Source: Candidatus Dadabacteria bacterium
GTDB lineage: Bacteria > Desulfobacterota_D > UBA1144 > Nemesobacterales > CSP1-2
NCBI GenBank assembly: GCA_040289575.1
Contig: PSLL01000001.1
Coordinates: 44,059 to 64,159, forward strand
Direction of reading: 5' to 3'
DNA length: 20,101 bases
A program made the position numbers and the translations under genes. Position 1 is the stretch's first letter. The number at the start of each line of letters is the position of its first letter. The notes below the pieces were generated by a model. The model was not told the DNA's origin and ran no database searches. It saw only the letters and a program-made list of their open reading frames with translations. This document shows, piece after piece, positions 2,896-20,101 of this stretch.

Positions 2896-3825
2896 TTAGC
2901 TCAAATACCCGCCCAGCTTCATTACCTGTTTCTCTGCGTGGTAGGAGCTTCTGACAAGCGGGCCGGCTTCTATGTGCGGAATTCCGATTATTGCCTCCCC
3001 ATATTTCTTTAGAGATTCAAACTCAATCGGGTGGTAGTATCTCACAACGGGGAGGTGATTTATGCTCGGCCTCAGGTACTGACCGATTGTTACAATATCG
3101 CATCCTGCATTTTTTAAGTCCCAAAGCGTCTCAATAATCTCTTCGAGTTCTTCTCCAAGCCCGACCATAAGCCCCGACTTTGTGAGAAGTCCTTCGTGAC
3201 CAATCTCTTTGCTTTTCTCGAGAACTCTAAGTGACCACTCGTATTTTGCCTGAGGGCGCACCGATCGCTTCCTTCCGGATTCGGTTTCTACGGGGATGTA
3301 ATATAGCCTGGGCACTGTTTCAATATTGTGGTTCAGTACATCGGGTCTGGCATCCAAGACCTCTTTGAGGGCCTTTATATCCCCTTTGAAGTCGGGAATA
3401 AGAACCTCGATTTTTATTTGTGGGGTGTATTCTTTTACCTTTCGTATCGTTTCCGCAAATATAACTGCGCTCTCATAGTTCCTGTCATCTCTGTCAACGG
3501 ATGTGATGACAATATGGTTTAGATAGGCATCGTTAAGCGAAAGCTCACTTATAGCCTTTGCCACCCTTTCAGGCTCATTCCAGTCAATCTCGCCGGGCTT
3601 TCCGGTTTTCACAGCACAAAAACCGCAGCTCCTTGTACATGTATCGCCGAGGATCATAAACGTAAGCGTTCCTGCTCCCCAGCACTCCCCGATGTTTGGG
3701 CACTGAGCCTCTTCACATACTGTGTGGAGATTGAGATTCCTCATAAGGCTTCTCAGTCGGATGTAGTTAGAACCCCCGGGAAGCCTGGCTTTAATCCAAC
3801 TGGGTTTTCGTAAGGTTTGACTCAT
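2896..3825 (-). CDS. lipA: Lipoyl synthase
   Basis: Auxiliary cluster motif CEEAQCPNIGEC, radical SAM motif CTRSCGFC, HNIETV, TIGQYL and C-terminal RSSY. ATG 3825 preferred to TTG 3831. Confidence 0.97.
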   Translation of the reverse strand: MSQTLRKPSWIKARLPGGSNYIRLRSLMRNLNLHTVCEEAQCPNIGECWGAGTLTFMILGDTCTRSCGFCAVKTGKPGEIDWNEPERVAKAISELSLNDAYLNHIVITSVDRDDRNYESAVIFAETIRKVKEYTPQIKIEVLIPDFKGDIKALKEVLDARPDVLNHNIETVPRLYYIPVETESGRKRSVRPQAKYEWSLRVLEKSKEIGHEGLLTKSGLMVGLGEELEEIIETLWDLKNAGCDIVTIGQYLRPSINHLPVVRYYHPIEFESLKKYGEAIIGIPHIEAGPLVRSSYHAEKQVMKLGGYLS

Positions 3826-3862
3826 GCTCAATATTATATCCCAGGGCTAATGACGGATAAAG
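3747..3862 (+). repeat. Direct repeat copy 1 (functional lipA promoter plus first ~26 codons)
   Basis: By-eye alignment to 14289-14403 gives 10 substitutions and 1 indel over 116 nt. Confidence 0.95.
3833..3861 (-). promoter_or_regulatory. Putative sigma70 promoter of lipA (possibly leaderless)
   Basis: Minus strand TTTATC-17 nt-TATAAT. The -10 ends 7 nt before the ATG at 3825, and no Shine-Dalgarno sequence is present. Confidence 0.6.
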
Positions 3863-3872
3863 TAAATAATAT

Positions 3873-4736
3873 TCAGATTCTCCCTACCCCTTTTTGTGTC
3901 GATTTTTCCCATTCAACGACCTTAAGGTACTCATTTATATCTATAAGTCTATCAATCTCTTTTGGGTTTGATGGTTCAATTACAATCATCCAGCCTTCTC
4001 CATATGGGTCATAAACTAGAGGTAGCGGATCCTTAATTACGCTCTTATTTACTTCTAAAATCTTTCCACTTAGCGGTGAAGAGAGGTCAACTGTCGTTTT
4101 CTGTGATTCGATTATGCCTATAGTATCACCAGTCTTTATTTCATCCCCGACCTTTGGAAGCTCCACATTGGTGATAAGGGTCAAAAAATCAGACACACGC
4201 TGGGTGATTCCAAGGCGCGCATTTCTACCTTCAATCTTTACCCACCAGTGCTCCTTTGTGTATTTTAAGTTCCTAGGATAATTTTCCGCTTTAGCTTCCG
4301 GGGCAGCTGGGCGTCCCTCCAGGGCCTTTTCCTTTTGTTTTTCTTTCTGAAAGCGGGCTGTCACATCACGAATAATAGCCGCTGCGCCTAACAATTCACC
4401 CGATGTATCGCGCAGGAGGGCGATAGTAAATTCAAGAGAAATGCGCGTACCATCTTTGCGAATAGCCGGCACTGCAAGTAACTCTCGGGCATACCGTGTG
4501 AATCCGGTTTTCATTACGTTGCTATAACCCTCCCAGTGCCTTTCCCTCAGGCGCTCCGGAATAATCAAATCTAGGGTCTGTCCCAATGCCTCCTCGGCTT
4601 GATAGCCAAACATGGCCTCAGCCCCTAAATTCCAGAGGCGAATGATGCCATCCCGGTCTGCAAATATGATTGCATCCTGGGCTTTTTCCACGATTTGTTG
4701 ATATACCCACTCATATTTGTAGTTCTGCATATTCAT
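3873..4736 (-). CDS. PAS domain / glycine cleavage H-protein (lipoyl carrier) fusion
   Basis: N-terminal PAS (DAIIFADRDGIIRLWNLGAEAMFGY...RKDG...IIRDVT) followed by a GcvH-like domain (YTKEHWWV...GIT...VELPKVG...IESQKT...SPLSG...DPYGEGWM). The lipoyl Lys position is retained (ESQK). Confidence 0.88.
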   Translation of the reverse strand: MNMQNYKYEWVYQQIVEKAQDAIIFADRDGIIRLWNLGAEAMFGYQAEEALGQTLDLIIPERLRERHWEGYSNVMKTGFTRYARELLAVPAIRKDGTRISLEFTIALLRDTSGELLGAAAIIRDVTARFQKEKQKEKALEGRPAAPEAKAENYPRNLKYTKEHWWVKIEGRNARLGITQRVSDFLTLITNVELPKVGDEIKTGDTIGIIESQKTTVDLSSPLSGKILEVNKSVIKDPLPLVYDPYGEGWMIVIEPSNPKEIDRLIDINEYLKVVEWEKSTQKGVGRI

Positions 4737-4739
4737 GTT

Positions 4740-5336
4740 TCATCTCTCTATTGCAGAGTTAACCAAACGCCTTAGTACCTCATAGCTTTGAAGTCCGACT
4801 AATCTAGTTTTGTTCATTATAAATTTCGGTGTACCAAGCACACCATAGCTTGCTTTCTCTCTTCGAACTTCCTCCAATCTCTCATGATAAAGGTGTTTGT
4901 CTAATGCCAGATATAGTTCATCAGTATCTAGTCCTAGTTCTTGAGCAATACCCAAAATCACCGGCCTATCTCCTATGTTTCTACGTTCAAGAAAATACGC
5001 TTCAAAAACCATTTTATGAAATGGATCAAACACACCTTTTTCCCTTGCAAATTCTGAGGCCTCTAGTGCAATGTGCGAGTTGGAAATAAAGGAATTAGGT
5101 TTAATTTCAAGGCCTTCTAGCTTAGCAATTAGTCTTACGTTTTCTTCGACCGTTTTCATGTAGTTTTCCCCCAGAAAAGATTTCGGTGCGCCACCTTTGG
5201 GCATATCGGGATGGGTTGCATAGTTTTTCCATTCCACTTCTATATCGTATTCAGTCTGTAATTTTTCTACCCTTTTTAGGGCAAAGAAGCAGAAGGGACA
5301 TATATAATCAGAGAAAACTAGGAATTTTGGTTTCAT
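4740..5336 (-). CDS. DsbA/FrnE-like dithiol-disulfide oxidoreductase
   Basis: FSDYICPFC active site, AYF...NIGD and GVLGTP cis-Pro motif. ATG 5336 (MKPKFLVFSD) preferred to the ORF-track start at 5381. Confidence 0.88.
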   Translation of the reverse strand: MKPKFLVFSDYICPFCFFALKRVEKLQTEYDIEVEWKNYATHPDMPKGGAPKSFLGENYMKTVEENVRLIAKLEGLEIKPNSFISNSHIALEASEFAREKGVFDPFHKMVFEAYFLERRNIGDRPVILGIAQELGLDTDELYLALDKHLYHERLEEVRREKASYGVLGTPKFIMNKTRLVGLQSYEVLRRLVNSAIER

Positions 5337-5346
5337 GTTTTTCTCT

Positions 5347-5664
5347 TTAATGTTTAAATAGACCCGTCTCTTCAGGAGCACCGGGCGGCATAATACCCCT
5401 TCTTATTCGAATCATTATCGGGTCTAGTTGGAACCCATATCTTGTGTAGGTATATTTCTCCGGAACCTCTACCTCGACTGGAACGGTTTCGAGTCCTGTA
5501 TTTGTTGCCTCAATAAGGAGTTTTCTCCTCTTTTCTTCTGAGACGGAATCTGTAATTACAACGAGATAAAAAGCGTCTACTATAGCTATATCTTTCGGTT
5601 CAAGATATTTTTCCGCGACGTAATAAGAGTTATTTCCTACGAGTAGATAGCCCTTTCTAATCAA
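5347..5664 (-). CDS. Hypothetical protein (105 aa)
   Basis: TTG start, co-oriented and closely packed with neighbours (stop 10 nt before the DsbA-like start). No family recognised. Confidence 0.6.
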   Translation of the reverse strand: MIRKGYLLVGNNSYYVAEKYLEPKDIAIVDAFYLVVITDSVSEEKRRKLLIEATNTGLETVPVEVEVPEKYTYTRYGFQLDPIMIRIRRGIMPPGAPEETGLFKH

Positions 5665-5747: not shown

Positions 5748-6392
5748 TTATTTTTCTGCCTTATTAGTATCAATGTCATCCGGCAGCCCACGACGGTACT
5801 CTACTTCTTCGATAGGCACTTTATATTTTTGGACGATTTCTTCGTCGCTCAATTTTCTATCATTTGAGAATTCCACTCTGCCCATAGTAAGATAGGCGGC
5901 AAACCTGCGGAGTTCTTCTTCATCCCAGTCGGATTTCTCACCCGCACCGATTGCCATAGCAAGCACCCAGTTCTTTTCATTCTCTTCAAGATTCGGGTCT
6001 AGAGTGATGTTTTTTTGGGGCTCCCATTCTATAACCGCCGCCGCGCGACCTTTATATTGAATTACACGGTGTAGCCTGTGAGTTGACTCTATATTCCAGG
6101 GTGGAAGTTGATACCCATGCTCTTTGAGCCAATTACGGCTGGTTTCGTGAAAGCCTGACAGGTCTGTAGAACTCAGCACCATATAGTGAATATTTCTTCG
6201 GAGCATATTATCTGTTCCGGCAGATATCTCCGCCGAGGTTCTTGTGCCGAAGTGCTCTTTGTACTCATTTAAAAACTCCTGTAGTAGATTTGCATCTGAG
6301 AGTTCCGGGTCATGGCGGAGCATATCTTTAAGCCGATTCCTTAAAGGCTCATAACGCTCATCATCCATTGGTAAATTTGTTTTTTTCTCCAT
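5748..6392 (-). CDS. Protein with a degenerate IrrE/ImmA (DUF955)-like C-terminal domain lacking HExxH
   Basis: ITLDPNL..EKNWVLAMAIGA...EEELRRFAAYLTM...IVQKYKVPIEEVEYRR mirrors the IrrE pattern I.LN.NL...RF.LAHELGH...E.EAN.FAA.LLM...LA..F.VS...V.YR. GGAGG RBS. Confidence 0.6.
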   Translation of the reverse strand: MEKKTNLPMDDERYEPLRNRLKDMLRHDPELSDANLLQEFLNEYKEHFGTRTSAEISAGTDNMLRRNIHYMVLSSTDLSGFHETSRNWLKEHGYQLPPWNIESTHRLHRVIQYKGRAAAVIEWEPQKNITLDPNLEENEKNWVLAMAIGAGEKSDWDEEELRRFAAYLTMGRVEFSNDRKLSDEEIVQKYKVPIEEVEYRRGLPDDIDTNKAEK

Positions 6393-6434: not shown

Positions 6435-6680
6435 TTAGAGAAGTTCATAAAACACAAAGAGCTCTGCTCCATTTATCTGCTTTTCGATAACCCTTCTCCT
6501 TTTGCCATCGGTTTCTTCCTCTTCGCCGATTTTGATATAGACATACTGGACAGGATGTCTTATCTCTGTTTGAATTTTGTCTGATTCACAAATCCATTCA
6601 ATCTCTTTATTCTCTATACCTGATAATGAGATTCTCTTACTGCAAGCCATTAAAGTTTGACACCTCGGACAGATGGGCAT
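6435..6680 (-). CDS. Small protein with N-terminal CxxC, possible zinc-binding
   Basis: MPICPRCQTLMAC...WICESD; AAGGAG RBS. Confidence 0.65.
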   Translation of the reverse strand: MPICPRCQTLMACSKRISLSGIENKEIEWICESDKIQTEIRHPVQYVYIKIGEEEETDGKRRRVIEKQINGAELFVFYELL

Positions 6681-6724: not shown

Positions 6725-7756
6725 TTACCTTTTAAGCTCTAGGACGGTGGGTTCCGATTCCAAGGATTCGGTCTCTGGGGAAATTACTTCAAACTTAAGT
6801 TGATCACCTGTGTTTTCAACTAATATTTTACTGTTACGCGGTAAAATCTCCTCGATAATCAAACGGGCTAAGGGCTGGTGTAGGTGCTGGCGTAAAACCC
6901 TTTTTAAGGGACGAGCTCCGTATTTTAGATCAAATCCCTTTTCGATGAGAAATTCTTTTGCTTCTTGAGTCAGCTCAGCATGAAAACTGTGGTATCTTCG
7001 AAGCTGTTTATTTAGCTCCTCTATCTGAATATCAAGAATCCGCATGAGATCATCGTGACCCAGCCATTTAAAAACTATGATTCCGTCTATCCTGTTTATG
7101 AATTCGGGCTTGAATGTACGCTCAAGTGCCTCCATAGCAATCTGCTTACGTGAGAGTTCCCAGTCCATTTCGACACTCGTTTCACCCTTGTTGGTTACGT
7201 GTTTTAAAGACCCTTGATAGTCCGCAATTGCCTTTAGGGCTTCAGAGCCAACATTGCTTGTCATAATTATGATAGTGTTTGTGAAGTGGATCTCCTCAGT
7301 CCCGCTCGAGAGACGGAGAAGGGCGTTATCAAAGATCTGAAGAAGCGTCTGATGGACTACTGGATGTGCCTTTTCAACCTCATCAAGAAGAAGAATCCCC
7401 GGCTTACCAAACCTCCCTTCAATCCTGTTTTTATCGAGTATGGTGTTGTTCTCCCTACTTCCGATATACCCGGGAGGAGAACCGGAAAAAGAGGCTGCAT
7501 AATGCCTTTCAGAAAGACCGCTCATATCAACTCTGCAGTATGCACCAGATTCCCCATGAATCGCTTCGGCAAGGGCCTTTACGGTCTCTGTTTTTCCAAC
7601 CCCAGTCGGTCCGAGAAAGAGGAGAACACATAATGGCTTATCCGGTTCATTGAGCCCTGCTTCGGCAATCATCAAGGCTTCTTCTATACGGTTTATAGCT
7701 TCATCTTGGCTGATAATACGATGTCTTAAGTGGGCAATTACCTTTTTGTAATCCAT
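6725..7756 (-). CDS. Single-NBD Clp-type AAA+ ATPase (ClpB D2-like), similar in form and position to P. aeruginosa amidase-operon AmiB
   Basis: Walker A GPTGVGKT, pore loop GSPPGYIG, Walker B LLLDEVEKAHP, FKPEFINRID and GARPLKR. No NBD1 or N-domain. Lies directly downstream of the amidase. Confidence 0.88.
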   Translation of the reverse strand: MDYKKVIAHLRHRIISQDEAINRIEEALMIAEAGLNEPDKPLCVLLFLGPTGVGKTETVKALAEAIHGESGAYCRVDMSGLSERHYAASFSGSPPGYIGSRENNTILDKNRIEGRFGKPGILLLDEVEKAHPVVHQTLLQIFDNALLRLSSGTEEIHFTNTIIIMTSNVGSEALKAIADYQGSLKHVTNKGETSVEMDWELSRKQIAMEALERTFKPEFINRIDGIIVFKWLGHDDLMRILDIQIEELNKQLRRYHSFHAELTQEAKEFLIEKGFDLKYGARPLKRVLRQHLHQPLARLIIEEILPRNSKILVENTGDQLKFEVISPETESLESEPTVLELKR

Positions 7757-7961: not shown

Positions 7962-8939
7962 TTATGCCGTTGCCTCCTCCTGTGGAATGGCGGTCTTACG
8001 GGTGAGCGACTCAACGAGTTCTTTCGCCTTAGCGGGGTTTTTCACCCAGAGTTTATAGAAGTCATAGGGACACTCAGCAACTCCGTCGGGCGGTAGAGCT
8101 GTGTATCCGCGATGTAGTGTGTTGAAGAGATGGTTTTCGGCAGTCCAGTTCTTCCTTGCATCACGAATCGCGGAGACTGAGAGAAGCGCATACTGTACCT
8201 CATCGGGACCGGTTCCACACTCCGCAAGTACCGTTCCATCAAAGTTTACGATGTTTGAATGGCCAAAGTATGAATAGACGAGGTCACGACCCGCCATATT
8301 GGCTACGACAAAGTATGTTAGATTCTCCCATGCACGAACCTGTGAGATCATTCTCTGCTGCTCCTTTGATGGGTACATATAACCCTGAATCCTGATTACC
8401 AACTCTGCGCCTTTCATGACTGTGTCACGGACGATCTCGGGATGGTTCCCATCGTAGCAAATAATCGATCCGATCTTTAATCCCTTTGGGCCATCTGCAA
8501 CCATCGTTTCATTGCCGGGATACCAAGGTTCCATTGGAACCCAGGGAAGAATCTTATGGTATTTGATAGCGATGTCACCCTTATCATTCATCAGTATAAA
8601 CGTGTTGAATGGATTTCCTTTAGGATTTTCTTCGCCGGTGATTGAGAATACACCCCAGACCTTGTTTCTCCTGCATCCATCGGCAAATATCTCGGTTTCC
8701 GGTCCGGGAACAGTAGTTGTAAGGTCACGCCATTTTACTGGATGAAACCCTTGTGTGCTGTACTCAGGGAAAATTATAAGGTCACAGCCGGGATAGCCCC
8801 TCTTGATACCGTCCATAAACGATGCGATGCGCTTACAGTTTTTAATCACATCGTCTTTGGATTCACAAATAGGCACTTGGTAATTAACAACGGCTACACC
8901 TACCATATCTTTAGACGATGATATTGTTCCTACAGGCAT
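7962..8939 (-). CDS. amiE: Aliphatic amidase, nitrilase superfamily (AmiE-like)
   Basis: ISSSKDMVGVAVVNY, FPEYSTQG (Glu), YHKILPW (Lys), IICYDGN.PE (Cys), KGAELVIR.QGYMYP and YSYFGHS. GAGGAGG RBS. Confidence 0.9.
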   Translation of the reverse strand: MPVGTISSSKDMVGVAVVNYQVPICESKDDVIKNCKRIASFMDGIKRGYPGCDLIIFPEYSTQGFHPVKWRDLTTTVPGPETEIFADGCRRNKVWGVFSITGEENPKGNPFNTFILMNDKGDIAIKYHKILPWVPMEPWYPGNETMVADGPKGLKIGSIICYDGNHPEIVRDTVMKGAELVIRIQGYMYPSKEQQRMISQVRAWENLTYFVVANMAGRDLVYSYFGHSNIVNFDGTVLAECGTGPDEVQYALLSVSAIRDARKNWTAENHLFNTLHRGYTALPPDGVAECPYDFYKLWVKNPAKAKELVESLTRKTAIPQEEATA

Positions 8940-8999: not shown

Positions 9000-9016
9000 G
9001 GCAATTTTTGTGCCGA
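9000..9016 (-). promoter_or_regulatory. Sigma54 (-24/-12) promoter of the amidase
   Basis: Minus strand TCGGCACAAAAATTGCC has exact GG-N10-GC spacing, ~60 nt upstream of the amidase ATG and adjacent to a GAFTGA activator gene. Confidence 0.85.
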
Positions 9017-9091: not shown

Positions 9092-9208
9092 TTGGTTTTT
9101 TTACCAAGGGTTGAAGTATGGGATAAGACAAAGAAATCGCCTTTTCCATTGACTTAAGCCACATTCAAGTTTGGTAAATTTACCAATAAATATTGGTAAA
9201 TTTACCAT
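9092..9208. promoter_or_regulatory. Three palindromic TTGGT-N6-ACCA(A/T) sites, candidate upstream activator sequences
   Basis: TTGGTTTTTTTACCAA at 9092-9107, perfect palindrome TTGGTAAATTTACCAA at 9171-9186, and TTGGTAAATTTACCAT at 9193-9208. Confidence 0.72.
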
Positions 9209-9213
9209 AGTTT

Positions 9214-10587
9214 CTATTCAAGAAACACGTCCCTTTTGATTCCATACTTCTTCATCTTCTCCCAAAGGTTCTTTACATCCATATCTGCATGTTTCGCTGC
9301 CTGTGTAAGCTTTCCTCCGTAGAGTTCTAAGAGTCCAGAAATATAGGTTTTCTCGAATTCTTCAATCACCTTGGTCTTGGCTGTCTTGAAGCTAGTTGTG
9401 AGATCAACCGAATCGGTTTTTTCCCTTGTTAAGAAAATCTCAATGTCGGTAATTATCTCCTTTTTCTCTACAATAACGGCTCTTTCAATAATGTTTTCGA
9501 GTTCTCTAACATTCCCAGGCCATGAGTAGTTGATTAATGTATTGATTGCCTCTTCGGAGATGGATTTTATGGGCTTATTAAACTTCTCTGCGTATTTCTT
9601 CAGAAAGAATCTTGTAAGAAGCGGTATATCCTCTTTTCTTTCTCTAAGAGGCGGTAGTTCAACAGGAATAACGTTCAATCTGTAGAAAAGGTCTTCTCTA
9701 AAATTCCCTTTTTCTACCTCTGACTTTAGATTCTTATTTGTAGTTGCGATGATTCTTACGTCAATGTCTACGCTCCTTTCACTGCCTAGGCTTGTGACCT
9801 TTTTATCTTCAATCACTCTAAGAAGTTTAGGCTGGAGTTTAAGAGGCATCTCTCCTATTTCGTCAAGGAGAATTGTGCCTCCATTTGCCATCTGAAAGAG
9901 CCCCCTTCTATTCTGATTTGCTCCTGTGAAAGCCCCTTTTTTAAAACCAAAGAGCTCACTTTCAAAAAGCTCGTCTGGAATAGCAGCACAGTTAACCGTA
10001 ATAAAAGGTTTTTCCCTTCTTGAGCTGTTAAAATGAATGGCGTTGGCAAGGAGTTCCTTACCGGTGCCGGTTTCACCATAGATGAGAATAGTGGTGTCAA
10101 GTTCTAGAATGTTCCTTGTAAGCTCTAAAATCTCCAGCATTTTTTTACTCTGAGAGATGATGTTTCTAAATGTAAATCGCTCGCGGTATTTATTTATCCG
10201 GCACTTATTTGCGAAGCTCAGTTCTTGCAACTTTAGGACCTTCTCAATCGCCATTATTATCTCCTCGTTTGAGAAGGGCTTCACTATATAGTCCTCGGCT
10301 CCTAGTTTCATTACTTCAACGGCGGATTCGATGGTGCCAAAGGCTGTCATCATAATTACTGCTAAATCCGGATTTTCGGCTTTGATGTACTTTACGAATT
10401 CCACTCCATCCATATCCGGAAGTTTTTTATCCGTGATTACGAGATCGAAGTCTTCTTTTTTCAAAAGGCTCATCGCCTCTTTTACATTGCCTGTGGTTGC
10501 CACTCTGTATCCCGCGCGTTCAATGTTTTTGACAAGAGGTTTTAGAAAAATTTCATCATCCTCAACTATTAGAATATTTCTTTTCAT
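9214..10587 (-). CDS. NtrC-family sigma54-dependent response regulator (CbrB-like architecture)
   Basis: REC domain (ILIVEDD, VITDKKLP, DYIVKPF), AAA+ domain (GETGTGKE, ESELFG.KKGAFTGA, LDEIGE, FREDLFYRLNV, WPGNVREL) and C-terminal Fis-like HTH. ATG 10587 has a GGAGGT RBS and overlaps the kinase end. Confidence 0.95.
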   Translation of the reverse strand: MKRNILIVEDDEIFLKPLVKNIERAGYRVATTGNVKEAMSLLKKEDFDLVITDKKLPDMDGVEFVKYIKAENPDLAVIMMTAFGTIESAVEVMKLGAEDYIVKPFSNEEIIMAIEKVLKLQELSFANKCRINKYRERFTFRNIISQSKKMLEILELTRNILELDTTILIYGETGTGKELLANAIHFNSSRREKPFITVNCAAIPDELFESELFGFKKGAFTGANQNRRGLFQMANGGTILLDEIGEMPLKLQPKLLRVIEDKKVTSLGSERSVDIDVRIIATTNKNLKSEVEKGNFREDLFYRLNVIPVELPPLRERKEDIPLLTRFFLKKYAEKFNKPIKSISEEAINTLINYSWPGNVRELENIIERAVIVEKKEIITDIEIFLTREKTDSVDLTTSFKTAKTKVIEEFEKTYISGLLELYGGKLTQAAKHADMDVKNLWEKMKKYGIKRDVFLE

Positions 10588-13570
10588 CGGATGCACCTCC
10601 TGCAGGTAGGATTATACTTACCTTTGTTCTCTCGCCTGGCATACTCTTTATGTCTACATCGCCTTTATGAAGATCAACGATCTTCTTTACTATAGCCATC
10701 CCAAGCCCAATTCCATTTGGTTTTGTTGTAAAAAATGGATGGTACATCTTTCCTAGATTCTCTTTTGAGATTCCAACGCCATTATCGACAAACTCTATAG
10801 AGATATAGGAGTCATGACTGTAGAGATTAATCAATATTTTTCCTTCCCTATGGTTTATTGCTTCAATTGCGTTCTTTAAAACATTTGCAAATACTTGCCT
10901 GATCTTTATACCATCAACATTTAGATTAATATTCTCTTGAAACCTGTTATATATCACCTGGATTCCCTTTTCATTGATTTCACGGTGAAATGAATTCACA
11001 ATTCCCCTGATTATTTGGGCGATGTTATAGTCTTCTTTTTCGAGTTTGTTTTCTCGCGCGAAATCAAGTAGGTCATTTATTATGTTTTCTATGTCTTTTA
11101 TTCCTGAAAGGATGCTGTCGAGCATATCTGTAGTAAAACTCCTTTCGCTTAAATCCCTGCGGATAAGGCCGACAGCCATCTTGATTCCTCCGAGAGGATT
11201 TCTTATTTCATGTGCTACACCGGCTGCCATCTCCCCTAAAGATGCCAGTTTTTCCCTCTGGATTAATCTTTTCTGCATCTCAATCTGATCGGTTATATCC
11301 CTCAGGATTCCCACTATACCAATCGTGTCCCCCCTCTCATTCAAGATCGAGGTTATGGAGAGATAAGCCGGAAACGTATCCCCATTCTTTTTTCTTACGA
11401 CAACCTCACCCTTCCAACCGCTTCCTGCTTGTGTTTCCTTTAGAATCCTTTTTCTTATTTCTTTGGGTGTGTTTTTGTCTATCAGTTTCATATAACGCCT
11501 TCCCGTAATTTCTTCTTTTGAATATCCAGTAAGCTTCTCTCCGGCGGCGTTTATAGTTATAACTCTTCCAAACATATCCGTGATGATAATGCTGTCGTCA
11601 ACGCTTCTTACAACGCTCGCAAAAAGCCTCTCCTGCTTTCTCATCTCTTCTTCGGTCAGGCGGAGGGAATCCTGCATCCTCTGAAATGATTCAACAATTT
11701 TCTCAGCTTCTGCTTTGGAAATCGTGAATTTATCCTCAATGATAAATTTTGCCGCTGCGGCCCCAAGATGAGCGGCGAGGAGCTTTTCAACCTTAATTCT
11801 CATCTCAAGAAGCTCGTGTATAGAGAAATCTAGATTTTCTAATTTATCCTCTGGAAAAAGGTCTTTTAGAAGTACGCTGGCTTCTTCATCACCGATGTAT
11901 TTGTGAATGAGTTTTTTTAGCTCCCATGTGGAAAGTATCGCTTTTCTCTGTGGGTAAGTTTCTATCTCGTCTCTCTGAAAAACCTTAACGAATGAGTTTG
12001 ATTGTATTATCTCTTCTTCGCCCTGCCTTGTGAAAAGAGATACAAGAACGTAGGCACCGGCATTAAAAAACATAGACCAAAAGGCTGTATGAGTTATATT
12101 ATCCAAACCGCGAAGTCCAAGAAATTCTGTGGGTTTAAGAATGGGTATACCGAATAGTCCCTGTGTCATAATCCCGGATGAGAGAAATCCCCTTTCAACA
12201 AGAGCGGGAATAATTAGGGTGTAGAACCAGATAATAAACCCAAGTGAAATGCCGGTAAACGCTCCTTTCTTATTCCCCTTTGTCCAGAATATTCCCAACA
12301 GCATAGCCGGGGCACACTGAGTTACGGCTGTAAACGAGAGAAGCCCGATGTCTACAAGGAGGTGCTCCTTTCCTAGAACTTTTGCATAAAGGTATCCGAA
12401 GAGTATGACAACAAGGATTGAGATTCTAGTCGAGTAGAGGTTTGCCTTGTATATGTTTCCCGGTTTTTGCATCTTTAGAATAATCGGAATCACAATGTCG
12501 TTTGTAATCATCTTGCTTACGGCGAGAGATGAGACCATGACCATAGCGGTTGCCGCGGAGAATCCACCCAGAAATGCAATCATCAAGGCCAGATTATTCT
12601 TATAGCTCATTGGGATGAGTAATATAAAATCGTCACCCCGAGAGGGCGGAAGGTTGAGGAGAAGCCCTGAGAACGCTATTGGAAGAACAAAGATATTTAT
12701 GAGTAGAAGATAAAGCGGGAATATCCAAGTGAGTTGACCTACGCGTCTTTCATCACGGTTCTGTACAACCATGACATGAAATTGTCTAGGAAGGAACATA
12801 ACCGCCATCATAGATATAAAAAGTAGCGAGAACCACCTTGAGTATGTAGTAAATTCATTGTTTAGGGTTAAAAGCCTTCTATATTCGGGATTTTCATAGA
12901 CCCTTCTAAATATCTCACCAAACCCGCCAAAGATTCCAAAGGTTATGTAGAAGCCGACTATGATAAAGGCAAGGAGTTTTACCATAGATTCGACGGCTAC
13001 AAGTGTAAGTAGCCCCCTTTGCTCTTTGGTAAAATCTAGGTTTTTTGCACCAAAGGTGATTGAGAAAATCCCAAGTGCTATTACGACAAAGAAGGTTAGA
13101 TCAAAGAGTTTAAGGTTCTTTCCTGTTATGACGCTGAACGAAAGGAAAATCGCCCTTAGCTGTAGAGCAATATAAGGGATGACTCCAAAAAAGATAAGAA
13201 GAGTGACCAACGTCCCTAAGGCATGGGATTTTCCATACCTGCTACTTATGAAGTCTGATATTGAAATGATATTCTGCTCCTTGGAGATTCGGATAATTTT
13301 CTTTAGAATAAGAGGCCAGAGTACTGCTATAAGAGTAGGGCCCAAATAGATGGTTAAAAATTCTAATCCTCTATTTGCTGCAAGCCCTATACTTCCATAA
13401 AACGTCCAGGCTGTACAGTAGACCGAAGCGGCAAGAACATATACGATGGATTTTAATCTATAAGAATCTAGAAATTTGCTGTATTTTTCGGAGAGGTAGG
13501 CTACTAGGAAAAGAAAGGTCAGATAAATTACGATAATCGAGAAAAGAGGAATGTATGTTAACTGATTCAT
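10562..13570 (-). CDS. SLC5 (Na+/solute symporter)-STAC-PAS-histidine kinase (CbrA/CrbS type)
   Basis: SLC5-kinase motifs VYCTAWTFYGSIG, ISDFISSRYGKS, PYIALQL, LPRQFHV and GGFSAATAMV; STAC-like EKLLAAHLGAAAAK; PAS; H-box AHEIRNPL; N/G boxes NVLKNA, DNGVG, FFTTK and GIGLGM. Confidence 0.95.
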   Translation of the reverse strand: MNQLTYIPLFSIIVIYLTFLFLVAYLSEKYSKFLDSYRLKSIVYVLAASVYCTAWTFYGSIGLAANRGLEFLTIYLGPTLIAVLWPLILKKIIRISKEQNIISISDFISSRYGKSHALGTLVTLLIFFGVIPYIALQLRAIFLSFSVITGKNLKLFDLTFFVVIALGIFSITFGAKNLDFTKEQRGLLTLVAVESMVKLLAFIIVGFYITFGIFGGFGEIFRRVYENPEYRRLLTLNNEFTTYSRWFSLLFISMMAVMFLPRQFHVMVVQNRDERRVGQLTWIFPLYLLLINIFVLPIAFSGLLLNLPPSRGDDFILLIPMSYKNNLALMIAFLGGFSAATAMVMVSSLAVSKMITNDIVIPIILKMQKPGNIYKANLYSTRISILVVILFGYLYAKVLGKEHLLVDIGLLSFTAVTQCAPAMLLGIFWTKGNKKGAFTGISLGFIIWFYTLIIPALVERGFLSSGIMTQGLFGIPILKPTEFLGLRGLDNITHTAFWSMFFNAGAYVLVSLFTRQGEEEIIQSNSFVKVFQRDEIETYPQRKAILSTWELKKLIHKYIGDEEASVLLKDLFPEDKLENLDFSIHELLEMRIKVEKLLAAHLGAAAAKFIIEDKFTISKAEAEKIVESFQRMQDSLRLTEEEMRKQERLFASVVRSVDDSIIITDMFGRVITINAAGEKLTGYSKEEITGRRYMKLIDKNTPKEIRKRILKETQAGSGWKGEVVVRKKNGDTFPAYLSITSILNERGDTIGIVGILRDITDQIEMQKRLIQREKLASLGEMAAGVAHEIRNPLGGIKMAVGLIRRDLSERSFTTDMLDSILSGIKDIENIINDLLDFARENKLEKEDYNIAQIIRGIVNSFHREINEKGIQVIYNRFQENINLNVDGIKIRQVFANVLKNAIEAINHREGKILINLYSHDSYISIEFVDNGVGISKENLGKMYHPFFTTKPNGIGLGMAIVKKIVDLHKGDVDIKSMPGERTKVSIILPAGGASDEKKYSNS

Positions 13571-17763: not shown

Positions 17764-19239
17764 CTACAAATCCTCAACAAACTCGGCGACGTTTTCGAGG
17801 TTTATTCCTTTTACTGCAATCTCCGGTGCAATCACCGTTTCTTCAGAGCCCCAGATCGGTGTGGATTTTTTCTCCTTTGATATTGCATTGATGTTTTGGA
17901 GGAGTCTTACAAAATTGTCGTTAATTCTTACTGTGTTTGGTTTGAGTGGCTCTGATAATTTTCCATTTCTGATTATATATGAATCCCCAATCACGGTGCC
18001 TGTAAAATTCGCCTTTGCGAGTCCATGAACGGGATAGAGATACCATAGCCTTCCTATGTATATTCCGTTTTTTATACGTGAGATTAATTTTTCTGAGGTT
18101 ACTTCTCTTGTTCCCTCAATCACGACATTTGTAGCAAATATGGACGTACTTCGGCGGAAGCTCCTCTCTCCGCCGCTAAATCGAAATCCGTTTCTCGGCG
18201 TGAATTTTTTCAATTTGCTTTCGTATTTTTTTGCATAGTAGTGGTTTGAAAGAAAACCGACCAATCTTCCCTTCTCAATCAAATCCGTTTTTCCTGTGGG
18301 AAGCCCTTCGCATGTTATCTTTCTGCTTCCAATTTCTCCTGGTCTGTTTCCATCATCGTAAATGGAAACTGTATCGGAGGCGACCCTTTCACCAAGCCTT
18401 CCCACAAACGGCGAATTCCCCGAATCTATTGAACTGAGGGATAGAGCTGGGACTATCATCTCAGAAAAGAGCATAGCGACCGCCTGTCTTCCGAAAACCG
18501 TGTTGTATTTTCCCGACTCTATTCTTTTTCCTCCAATGGAGTTTATCACACTTCTTGCGGCCATCTCCCCTGACTCTTCGGGTTTGAAAATATCAAGATG
18601 GGTTGCCGTAGCCCAGCCTGTACCCTTTGCGTTTTTTTCTTCAATCATTGCAGTAATCGAGGATATAAGAGTCGTTGACTCATCAAAGTCGTCAACCCCC
18701 TTAGTATTTCCCACAGCCATTTTCCCTTTCAGAATCGTTATATCTCCTCCTATAATCAGGCTCCTTGTGTAGCCAGATTCTTTAAAAGTGAACAATGCTC
18801 CTTTTATTGCGCGCCAGCCGAGTGAGACCATATCTTCGTCTTCTAAATCCATTACCCTTTTATCGTGATATGAAGAGGGCTTAGGTGACTCATCTGAGGG
18901 AGAGGGAATGGATTTAAAATCGGGGTCGCCTACCGCGCCTCGCTTTGCTTTTTCCAATGCCCTTTTTATTCCCCCCAGGCTCAAATCTCCCGTATCACTT
19001 CCAAACCCTATTTTTAGTCCTTGGTGTGTGTCCAATACGACTAGGATTCCGAGCCCATATCCTTCGATGTTTTTTGGTTCATGAACGCCGTTGCATGGGA
19101 TGTCCGAGGTATAATTGATTCTCACAGTTATGTGGTCATTCCATGAGGCAAATACTTCGGCATCCCTTATATCCTTTTGAGATTTAATATATTCAAGTCC
19201 ATCTCTTACGCATCTCCTTAAATCCTCAATTGTGATCAT
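17764..19239 (-). CDS. pmbA: TldE/PmbA family protein
   Basis: 491 aa with IYDDG, EGLPT...LIEKGRLVGFL, TNVVIEG and G.F.G...I.NG.L..P pattern. No HExxH. Downstream of tldD, with AGGAG RBS. Confidence 0.85.
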   Translation of the reverse strand: MITIEDLRRCVRDGLEYIKSQKDIRDAEVFASWNDHITVRINYTSDIPCNGVHEPKNIEGYGLGILVVLDTHQGLKIGFGSDTGDLSLGGIKRALEKAKRGAVGDPDFKSIPSPSDESPKPSSYHDKRVMDLEDEDMVSLGWRAIKGALFTFKESGYTRSLIIGGDITILKGKMAVGNTKGVDDFDESTTLISSITAMIEEKNAKGTGWATATHLDIFKPEESGEMAARSVINSIGGKRIESGKYNTVFGRQAVAMLFSEMIVPALSLSSIDSGNSPFVGRLGERVASDTVSIYDDGNRPGEIGSRKITCEGLPTGKTDLIEKGRLVGFLSNHYYAKKYESKLKKFTPRNGFRFSGGERSFRRSTSIFATNVVIEGTREVTSEKLISRIKNGIYIGRLWYLYPVHGLAKANFTGTVIGDSYIIRNGKLSEPLKPNTVRINDNFVRLLQNINAISKEKKSTPIWGSEETVIAPEIAVKGINLENVAEFVEDL

Positions 19240-19433: not shown

Positions 19434-20101
19434 TTACTTTCCTCCCGTAAGCTTTGCCCTGCTTCGCATGGTTGGGCCTCCATTTCCCACTCGAAGCGCT
19501 TGCATTGGAACCCCCTTTCCGCAGTTGGGCATGGGAATCATGCGAAAGTCATCTCCTACGGCGTCAATCTTCATCAAATAATCCCTTGAGTCGGATGTTA
19601 TCCCGCCGCTTCTGTAGAGCTTTATAAGCTCACCGTTTTTGATCCTGTAAACGCGCCTTGCGGATATACTGAAATTCTCACGGGATTCGCCTATTGATGG
19701 TGTGCGATGGCTTACCAAATAGTAGCCGTCATCTACCTCTTTAATTATATCCTCCGGTTTCCTATAGCCTGGTGCAAACACAGTATTCGTCATCCTGACA
19801 AGCGGAATGAAATAGGCATCCGTTGCGCGCATAGCACCGTTTGGCTCTTCGCCCAGAATCGCCGCCGTCTCGCGACTGTTTAAAAATCCGCGAAATATCC
19901 CCCTGTCAATGTGGACTACCTTTTTTGCCTTCACTCCTTCGGAGTCGTATTTATATTGTCCGTATCCTGCAAGCGATGTATCGGAATAAGCCGTTACCAA
20001 ATCTGAGGCGACCCTTTTTCCAATTTGATTATCGTCAAGGCTCCTCATCAGCCAGCTCCTTCCCGCATAAGCGGTCTCCATCTTGAGTGCTCTATCGGCT
20101 T
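19434..20101 (-). CDS. tldD: TldD family metalloprotease, 5'-truncated by the window edge
   Basis: Frame is open to the edge (ADRALKMETAYAG...). YKYDSEG, PLVRMTNT and C-terminal CGKG.P.Q...VGNGGP. Confidence 0.9.
   Translation of the reverse strand, partial: ADRALKMETAYAGRSWLMRSLDDNQIGKRVASDLVTAYSDTSLAGYGQYKYDSEGVKAKKVVHIDRGIFRGFLNSRETAAILGEEPNGAMRATDAYFIPLVRMTNTVFAPGYRKPEDIIKEVDDGYYLVSHRTPSIGESRENFSISARRVYRIKNGELIKLYRSGGITSDSRDYLMKIDAVGDDFRMIPMPNCGKGVPMQALRVGNGGPTMRSRAKLTGGK

Follow-up and report, generated by a model that had tools for sequence, protein, structure and literature searches.

Owing to two kinds of GcvH-like protein that act outside glycine cleavage, lipoate has recently come to be seen as a regulated redox currency and no longer as a fixed cofactor. 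GcvH-L, found in Staphylococcus and Streptococcus and encoded in the lplA2-sirTM-macro operon, is a second, regulated carrier tied to oxidative stress and, as described in part of PMC12440151, is controlled through ADP-ribosylation by a separate enzyme. LbpA is reported to be a lipoate-binding redox protein that is less acidic than GcvH, has conserved Cys residues and is encoded in sHdr clusters with their own ligase and LipS1/LipS2. In addition, Ohr, OsmC and AhpD are described (PMC8945050, in part) as taking electrons from lipoylated proteins, in relays where dihydrolipoyl bound to the E2 of a dehydrogenase complex and served by dihydrolipoamide dehydrogenase (Lpd) reduces a Cys-based redox protein. 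On the sensory side, the haem-binding PAS domains of FixL, DosP and FG214 have a kinase, a cyclic di-GMP phosphodiesterase or a helix-turn-helix domain as output. We report that a stretch of 20,101 nucleotides (nt) from a Candidatus Dadabacteria genome (GCA_040289575.1, contig PSLL01000001.1, positions 44,059 to 64,159; hereafter the window) encodes, within one open reading frame (ORF), a PAS domain of this type fused to a paralogue of GcvH, directly behind the gene of a DsbA-like oxidoreductase. The system is rare and appears coherent, its lineage is uncultured, and each functional step discussed below is one that we infer from sequence.

The fusion, its parts and the gene that follows it are, in window coordinates and with model confidence given as the predicted local distance difference test (pLDDT):

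3873..4736, minus strand: PAS-GcvH fusion ORF with an ATG start, 287 amino acids (aa), uninterrupted, 0 Cys.
4362..4703, minus strand: PAS domain, residues 12-125, haem-PAS type by its closest solved relatives.
4536..4538, minus strand: codon (CAC) of His67, which shares an alignment column with the proximal haem His in FixL and FG214.
4269..4322, minus strand: charged linker with Ala and Pro, residues ~139-156, of which residues 139-149 have pLDDT <50.
3912..4268, minus strand: GCV_H domain, residues 157-275, an operon-specific GcvH paralogue.
4098..4100, minus strand: codon (AAA) of Lys213, the predicted lipoylation site in ESQK.
2896..3831, minus strand: lipA, the only lipoyl synthase gene found in the genome (TIGR00510, 351.9 bits against 310.25), 41 nt downstream of the fusion.

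Residues 12-125 match the Pfam families PAS (PF00989, 55.2 bits), PAS_4 (55.1) and PAS_9 (51.7), and residues 157-275 match GCV_H (PF01597) at 104.3 bits against a gathering score of 22.2 and over profile positions 1-120 of 122. The ESQK motif occupies residues 210-213, and in the alignment Lys213 falls on the lipoyl-Lys column of the canonical GcvH copies. The AlphaFold2 model of the fusion has a mean pLDDT of 84.2 and a predicted template-modelling score (pTM) of 0.50, and residues 139-149 are the only internal stretch below 50; the interdomain linker, charged and rich in Ala and Pro, is modelled as disordered or flexible. The original prediction, made from the sequence and its ORF translations, had described a single uninterrupted ORF joining a PAS domain, a charged Pro/Ala linker and an H-protein domain with an intact ESQK Lys, had placed RERHWEGY at the position of the proximal haem His and the gene directly upstream of lipA, and had remarked that gcvT and gcvP are missing from the window. 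This description stands: neither gene is among the window ORFs, and both lie with a canonical gcvH on contig C82 of the same genome.

The fusion recurs in other assemblies. A search among 5.8 billion clustered proteins gave 935 proteins at an expect value (E) ≤0.001, and in five of the 120 best-listed matches (P0001-P0005, 65-100% identity) PAS and GCV_H occur together; a search with the GcvH half, covering proteins of 157-503 aa, returned the same five fused proteins among 78 candidates. Within the order, full-length fusions are present in three of 101 genomes, namely the genome of the window (G000), G001 (87% identity) and G009 (67%), which belong to three genera of one family, and two more fused loci, L050 (93%) and L053 (65%), came from a scan of metagenomes. 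The fused loci, five in total, are 65-93% identical with an open frame, two further database proteins share the architecture, and linker length is conserved among the fused proteins. Since the fused loci come from different assemblies, a chimera is excluded. A search with canonical GcvH gave 98 longer GcvH proteins among 371 candidates, in which GcvH is combined with GcvT, GcvP, LplA, FHA, MerR and other partners and in none with a PAS family, and an ESM Atlas query with the fusion returned PAS-only clusters and no fused one. Searching the whole library with the full protein using phmmer gave 162,794 matches, of which the best 150 were mostly long multi-PAS proteins and uninformative on architecture. 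This rare architecture is restricted to a small clade without cultured members, and we found no description of a PAS-GcvH fusion in the literature.

Both halves have relatives encoded as separate genes: stand-alone PAS proteins are 60-74% identical among the matches listed, and GcvH-only orthologues of 136-137 aa (79-82% identical) occupy the same position in G008, L051 and L052. In G008 no close stand-alone PAS protein is encoded elsewhere (best 35%). In a GcvH tree rooted on the canonical copies the GcvH-only proteins form a clade (100/97) inside the fused forms: they group with all other fused forms (100/99) to the exclusion of the fused G009/L053 lineage; in a PAS tree the fused domains form one group, weakly (60/94; 68% of bootstrap trees). 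The simplest history suggested by these trees is one fusion followed by one loss of PAS, with the fusion basal in the paralogue clade. As one clade lost the PAS domain and kept the DsbA-GcvH pair, the PAS domain would be a modulator that the core function can do without.

The canonical gcvT-gcvH-gcvP cluster on contig C82 allows the two GcvH copies of the genome to be compared. The fused GcvH has the H-protein fold (template-modelling score, TM, 0.93 and root-mean-square deviation, rmsd, 1.2 over 124 columns between the modelled domain and the T. thermophilus H-protein, 1onl), the E-S-x-K hairpin with the lipoyl Lys and an end-to-end GCV_H match; it differs in being only 43% identical to the canonical copy, in carrying a 12-residue C-terminal extension relative to canonical copies, and in its fusion to PAS. 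It scores below the cut-offs of the NCBIfam GcvH models (104.8 against 115.85, and 116.3 against 117), compared with 166 and 186.5 for the copy on C82, and likewise below those of GcvH_rel_desulf (NF045810, 42.8 against 150) and not_gcvH (TIGR03077, 65.7 against 144.05). Its net charge is -2 (isoelectric point, pI, 5.5) and that of its orthologues -6 to -8, versus -26 to -28 (pI 4.05) for canonical copies. The comparison of loci covered eight: the window, L050, G001, G009, L053, G008, L051 and L052. In 8/8 orthologues the ESQK motif and its hairpin are invariant (canonical copies have ESTK) and there are 0 Cys, and none of the 8 loci contains gcvT or gcvP, the genes on either side of the canonical copy. 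Judged by these scores, residues and neighbours, the fused GcvH is a distinct, lineage-specific lipoyl-carrier paralogue and not the H-protein of glycine cleavage.

By sequence the fusion protein seems akin to the "moonlighting" carriers GcvH-L and LbpA, yet it lacks the context and motifs of both, as it lacks equivalog scores for GcvH. SirTM, a macrodomain protein and LplA2, the context of GcvH-L, are not among the window ORFs, and control of the carrier would lie in a fused sensor domain instead of a separate ADP-ribosylating enzyme. Neither are sHdr, sLpl(AB) or LipS1/LipS2 among the window ORFs (sHdr was looked for only there), and the Cys conserved in LbpAs have no counterpart in the Cys-free fusion. 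In other metagenomic proteins GcvH is fused to FHA, zinc-ribbon and MerR-type domains (P0311, P0334, P0340, P0346, P0357, P0363), and other signalling proteins may likewise employ the H-protein fold.

The best solved sequence relatives of the PAS half are FG214 (10jx, E 3.9e-12), FixL (E ~1e-10) and DosP (E ~1e-8), and a Foldseek search with the modelled domain gave the same FixL, DosP and FG214. In the alignment His67, the His of RERHWEGY, shares a column with that of RSRH in B. japonicum FixL and with the leading His of VHQEH in FG214; it lies on helix 61-77 of the model, the F-alpha helix, at the position of the proximal ligand. His67, Trp68, Gly70 and Tyr71 are invariant in 21/21 aligned family members. 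In the one-component regulator FG214 this leading His of VHQEH, His156, is the proximal ligand, as reported from mutagenesis and a crystal structure, with Met172 and His175 as distal ligands (bioRxiv 10.64898/2026.03.15.711900, in part). By sequence relatives and modelled fold the PAS domain is of the FixL/DosP/FG214 haem-binding type, and haem binding itself is predicted by homology; it differs from these in having a carrier protein as output and in not keeping the distal ligands. The fusion has no Cys, which excludes a c-type haem or a thiol switch within it. The genome encodes ferrochelatase and several haem-copper oxidase genes, which indicates that the organism makes haem and meets O2; cytochrome bd was not found in the genome (95% completeness).

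The fusion is the last conserved gene of an array whose order, AAA+ protein, 81 aa, ~214 aa and 105 aa, is common to 8/8 loci, and which has an aliphatic amidase gene in front wherever the contig extends that far. The members upstream of the fusion are:

4740..5336, minus strand: cytoplasmic DsbA/FrnE-like oxidoreductase, 198 aa from the Met common to its orthologues (PF01323, 101.9 bits).
5347..5664, minus strand: 105-aa protein without a family match, kept in 8/8 loci.
5748..6392, minus strand: 214-aa protein without a family match, its C-terminal half with an ImmA/IrrE (CapP/PprI)-like fold.
6435..6680, minus strand: 81-aa Cys-rich protein without a family match, kept in 8/8 loci.
6725..7756, minus strand: single-domain AAA+ ATPase (AAA_2 and ClpB_D2-small), AmiB-like.
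7962..8939, minus strand: aliphatic amidase (NF009802, 475 bits; cut-off 427).

The DsbA-like neighbour, touched on only briefly in the original prediction, is the conserved partner of the fusion, and the link is strong. Its gene directly precedes that of (PAS-)GcvH in 7/8 loci, with 3 nt between its stop and the fusion ATG in the window and a 4-nt overlap in G008, and from this spacing the two genes are predicted to be translationally coupled. Orthologues of the array DsbA (at least 63% identity) are found only in genomes with the GcvH paralogue (3/120 genomes of the phylum); an FrnE-like protein present in 89/120 of these genomes is 30-41% identical to it. The CPFC site of the protein, at residues 13-16, is too close to the N-terminus for a signal peptide to precede it; the protein also has a cis-Pro loop, only two Cys in total and no C-terminal CxxxxC regeneration motif, which many FrnE-like proteins have though not every one. 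In these respects (CP(W/F)C near the N-terminus, no signal peptide, DSBA fold) it resembles the FrnE subfamily, but differs from D. radiodurans FrnE in lacking CxxxxC and in being an operon-specific paralogue. As described in part of PMC8945050, D. radiodurans FrnE is a cytoplasmic CP(W/F)C reductase of the DsbA family that is regenerated by its C-terminal CxxxxC tail, and homologues without the tail must be regenerated in some other way. DsbA-like proteins are not mentioned in the best-ranked literature on lipoyl proteins and GcvH.

The reading that we tentatively prefer, as one possibility among several, is that the fusion protein is a lipoyl dithiol/disulfide shuttle for the DsbA-like protein and is gated by the haem-PAS domain. 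Lys213 would be lipoylated by the LipB and LipA of the cell, and its dithiol/disulfide, recycled by Lpd, would make the carrier the dedicated electron partner of the DsbA-like protein. Binding of O2 or nitric oxide (NO), or a change of oxidation state, at the haem-PAS domain would alter the dimer state or the access to the lipoyl arm, so that the relay would run only under the sensed condition. The cytoplasm would have a lipoyl-dependent thiol relay similar to the ones supplying AhpD, Ohr and OsmC with electrons, with exchange presumed to run from the lipoyl arm towards CPFC and with the catalytic Cys of the amidase, or other cytoplasmic proteins, as a possible client. Lpd-DlaT-AhpD-AhpC of M. 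tuberculosis is a case of such a relay; the difference would be that the donor, there the E2 of a dehydrogenase complex, is here a free-standing GcvH paralogue encoded beside a client of DsbA/FrnE type. We favour a private lipoyl-to-CPFC relay because the DsbA and the GcvH of the array are both private paralogues of housekeeping proteins. The idea of a signal-gated lipoyl carrier, put forward in the original prediction, is plausible and the most economical given a PAS domain of haem type with its His, an invariant lipoyl-Lys motif and a conserved fusion, and what it loses is the weight placed there on lipA (see below). If it is true, the protein would be the first lipoyl carrier under direct allosteric sensor control and the first PAS domain with a swinging-arm cofactor as output. 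As the carrier is small (287 aa, with a 198-aa partner) and Cys-free and comes with a sensor-less GcvH-only control, signal gating of protein-bound lipoyl is directly testable in vitro.

Several observations weigh against this shuttle. G001 has the fusion and no DsbA orthologue anywhere in its 97%-complete genome, and the carrier can therefore work without the DsbA partner. The distal residues Met172/His175 of FG214 are replaced by Ala83/Leu86 and the distal Arg of FixL by Leu87, and as these are not conserved the homologues are no guide to the chemistry of the haem ligand. The AlphaFold2 model gives no confident contact between the two domains, as reflected in its pTM. The weaker acidity of the paralogue may make it a poor substrate for canonical octanoyl/lipoyl transferases; in a preprint on lipoate-binding proteins, ligase specificity is reported to be decided by surface charge. 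Further, a relay does not explain what the upstream amidase, the AAA+ protein and the three family-less proteins do. A complex prediction for the DsbA-like protein (7-row alignment) and the GcvH domain (8-row alignment), run without controls, scored 0.00 against a mark of 0.32, which counts neither for nor against their pairing.

An unlikely alternative, with some genomic evidence behind it, is that the protein is a reservoir or donor of lipoyl groups of GcvH-L type, which would store or protect lipoate and pass it to E2 under O2 or NO stress, the PAS domain controlling the release. S. aureus GcvH-L is described as doing so under oxidative stress (PMC12440151, in part). Two E2 genes and an Lpd gene in the genome call for lipoate, and lipA, intact or as a remnant, lies beside the gene in 4/7 readable loci and within ~11 kb in the others. 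However, the SirTM, macrodomain, LplA2 and amidotransferase (LipL) genes that would belong to such a system are not in the array, both lipoyl transferases of the genome are LipB octanoyltransferases (contigs C95 and C40; L006, L007), which modify their targets directly, and two genomes of the same genus, G013 and G014, have lipA and no paralogue. Because the genome uses LipB, no GcvH relay is needed for lipoate assembly. One of the two LipB genes lies directly beside that of Lpd and near an E2 gene on C95.

Rather improbable in our view is a second alternative, that the GcvH fold is a protein-binding output which is not lipoylated or not redox-active, through which the haem sensor would regulate the AAA+ and ImmA/IrrE-like module or the amidase. 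It draws on the stand-alone PAS family, whose genes lie at operon ends beside unrelated enzymes as if the proteins acted on their neighbours. PAS-only proteins make up 115 of the 120 best-listed matches; they are mostly 157-170 aa and have a C-terminal helix, those listed are 60-74% identical to the PAS domain of the window, and their source names include Binatia and Dehalococcoidia. In the ESM Atlas the clusters are commonest in Pseudomonadota and Actinomycetota, and the family spans several phyla. Among plasmid records 35 have a PAS homologue, all at <60% identity; in the six regions that are annotated, of seven that were opened (the Cupriavidus one is not annotated), the PAS genes are packed co-directionally among varied genes. 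The orders are hcp-PAS-ric-norV (Pelobacter propionicus), MarR-PAS-haemerythrin (Variovorax), metB-PAS (Skermanella), frc-PAS (Paraburkholderia), 5-formyl-tetrahydrofolate cyclo-ligase-PAS beside an Rrf2 regulator (Alloyangia) and PDR/VanB oxidoreductase-PAS (Azospirillum). Moreover, one database protein (P0052) is a PAS-haemerythrin fusion, and in G097 the PAS gene precedes that of an AhpD-like CMD protein. The stand-alone family gives the impression of a small, portable sensor of gases or redox state with its neighbours as targets, and we found no published description of its function. The gas- or redox-related contexts among these (hcp-PAS-ric-norV, MarR-PAS-haemerythrin and the PAS-haemerythrin fusion) also agree with the preferred reading, in which the PAS domain is an added sensor.

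The 214-aa neighbour also speaks for a binding output, since residues 92-206 of its model match CapP (7t5t, Z 8.8), PprI (8sln, Z 6.7) and an M. tuberculosis regulator (6d2s, Z 6.7). The metal-binding motif is absent, and the helix that reads LAMAIGA is the one which we take to carry HExxH in ImmA/IrrE peptidases; the modelled protein may be a pseudo-peptidase. The fusion of GcvH to FHA and MerR signalling domains in other proteins points the same way. Against a mere binding surface, the invariance of ESQK and its hairpin in all eight orthologues is hard to explain without modification, and the GcvH-only form exists without any sensor.

Still less probable is that the protein serves the ordinary glycine cleavage system as a second H-protein under O2 control. 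The full-length Pfam match and the close superposition on the T. thermophilus H-protein agree with it, but the paralogue falls below the equivalog cut-offs, has lost ~24 net negative charges, and is always in the amidase array and never beside gcvT or gcvP.

As an extension of the shuttle, and one that we regard as quite doubtful, the lipoyl arm and the haem might interact within a single protein or a dimer: a dihydrolipoyl thiol or thiolate on Lys213 would reach the PAS pocket by way of the linker and ligate or reduce the haem iron, with O2 or NO oxidising or displacing the thiol or thiolate. If so, the protein would integrate gas status with NADH/dihydrolipoyl status and deliver the result as a disulfide to the CPFC protein; a metabolic carrier would have become a haem-dithiol logic gate, and PAS sensors would gain a new class of output.

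The position of lipA bears on a further alternative, that the protein is a dedicated scaffold on which LipA builds lipoate, as in a lipoyl relay and as mentioned for GcvH-like proteins in the original prediction, which would explain the adjacency of the two genes and which we consider very improbable. Intact lipA follows the fusion gene in 2/7 readable loci, the window and L050, where it starts 41 nt downstream, and 48-residue C-terminal remnants of LipA, 71-73% identical to residues 263-311 of the window protein, follow the GcvH-only gene in G008 (L024, 4905-5045) and L052 (3575-3715). No trace of lipA follows the fusion gene in G001, G009 or L053, and the L051 contig ends too early. Such a relay needs LipM and LipL, whereas the two transferases of this genome are LipB; the lipA of the window is the only one of the genome and so a housekeeping gene. 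In G001, G009 and G008 intact lipA lies at the opposite end of an 11-kb block, before a 137-aa gene and a kinase gene, and in G014, where the entire block is missing, the genes that lipA directly faces are, just as in the window, those of the thioredoxin-like protein and CstA. From this distribution lipA appears to mark the borders of a block that was rearranged and lost, and its adjacency is historical and not a conserved operon feature. The arrangement suggests a past duplication of lipA flanking the block, followed by loss through recombination. The remnants also led us to consider the block as an island integrated into the 3' end of lipA, but there is no integrase and the arrangement in the window misfits a simple integration. 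The weight given in the original prediction to the adjacency of lipA is not supported, given that intact lipA follows the gene in two of seven loci, that this is the only lipA and that genomes of the same genus keep lipA without the fusion. An accidental fusion or assembly chimera without function, which the original prediction had itself raised, is scarcely credible: separate genes do encode relatives of each half that are as close or closer, yet the fusion recurs at five loci of 65-93% identity with an open frame and conserved linker length, has two more database representatives and is basal in the paralogue clade.

Among the other array members, the AAA+ protein is called AmiB-like on account of its position after the amidase, and the pair recalls amiE-amiB of P. 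aeruginosa, where AmiB is described as an ATPase of unsettled role (PMC12591593, in part). Used as a marker, the 214-aa protein was found in 4/120 genomes of the phylum, and a profile scan of species-level genome contigs gave two loci, both already known. The 105-aa protein had no usable feature match in the ESM Atlas, where structural matches reached TM 0.41-0.54. PADLOC assigned neither the fusion nor the 81-, 105- and 214-aa proteins to a defence system, and its matches were generic Clp-type ones for the AAA+ protein and one weak one (E 0.004) for the DsbA-like protein.

Upstream of the amidase lie a putative promoter and a regulator pair:

9001..9015, minus strand: sigma-54 promoter-like site CGGCAC-N5-TTGC, 62 nt before the amidase start (consensus match).
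9214-10596, minus strand: NtrC-type sigma-54 activator.
10562-13570, minus strand: sensor kinase with an N-terminal sodium:solute-symporter domain, PAS and kinase core.

The symporter-domain kinase and the sigma-54 activator presumably resemble the CbrA/CrbS type of pair. A perfect 36-nt palindrome, which contains two copies of TGGTAAATTTACCA, is located at 9172-9207, ~170 nt upstream of the sigma-54-like site and just below the activator gene, and is a candidate enhancer site. The stretch that separates the amidase and AAA+ genes contains consensus matches to a sigma-70-like site and to a terminator-like hairpin. In G001 and G009 an acetyl-CoA synthetase gene is placed between the kinase/activator pair and the amidase, which points to the use of acetamide or acetate.

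At the other end, a gene at 2237-2608 on the plus strand converges on the end of the array and encodes a protein of 123 aa whose N-terminus is rich in Cys (GGCICCSGG) and which matches Thioredoxin_3 weakly; in six other loci (70-90% identity) it likewise always follows CstA. Two adjacent genes of PmbA/TldD-type metallopeptidases (17764-19239 and 19434-20081, minus strand) are present at the end of the window.

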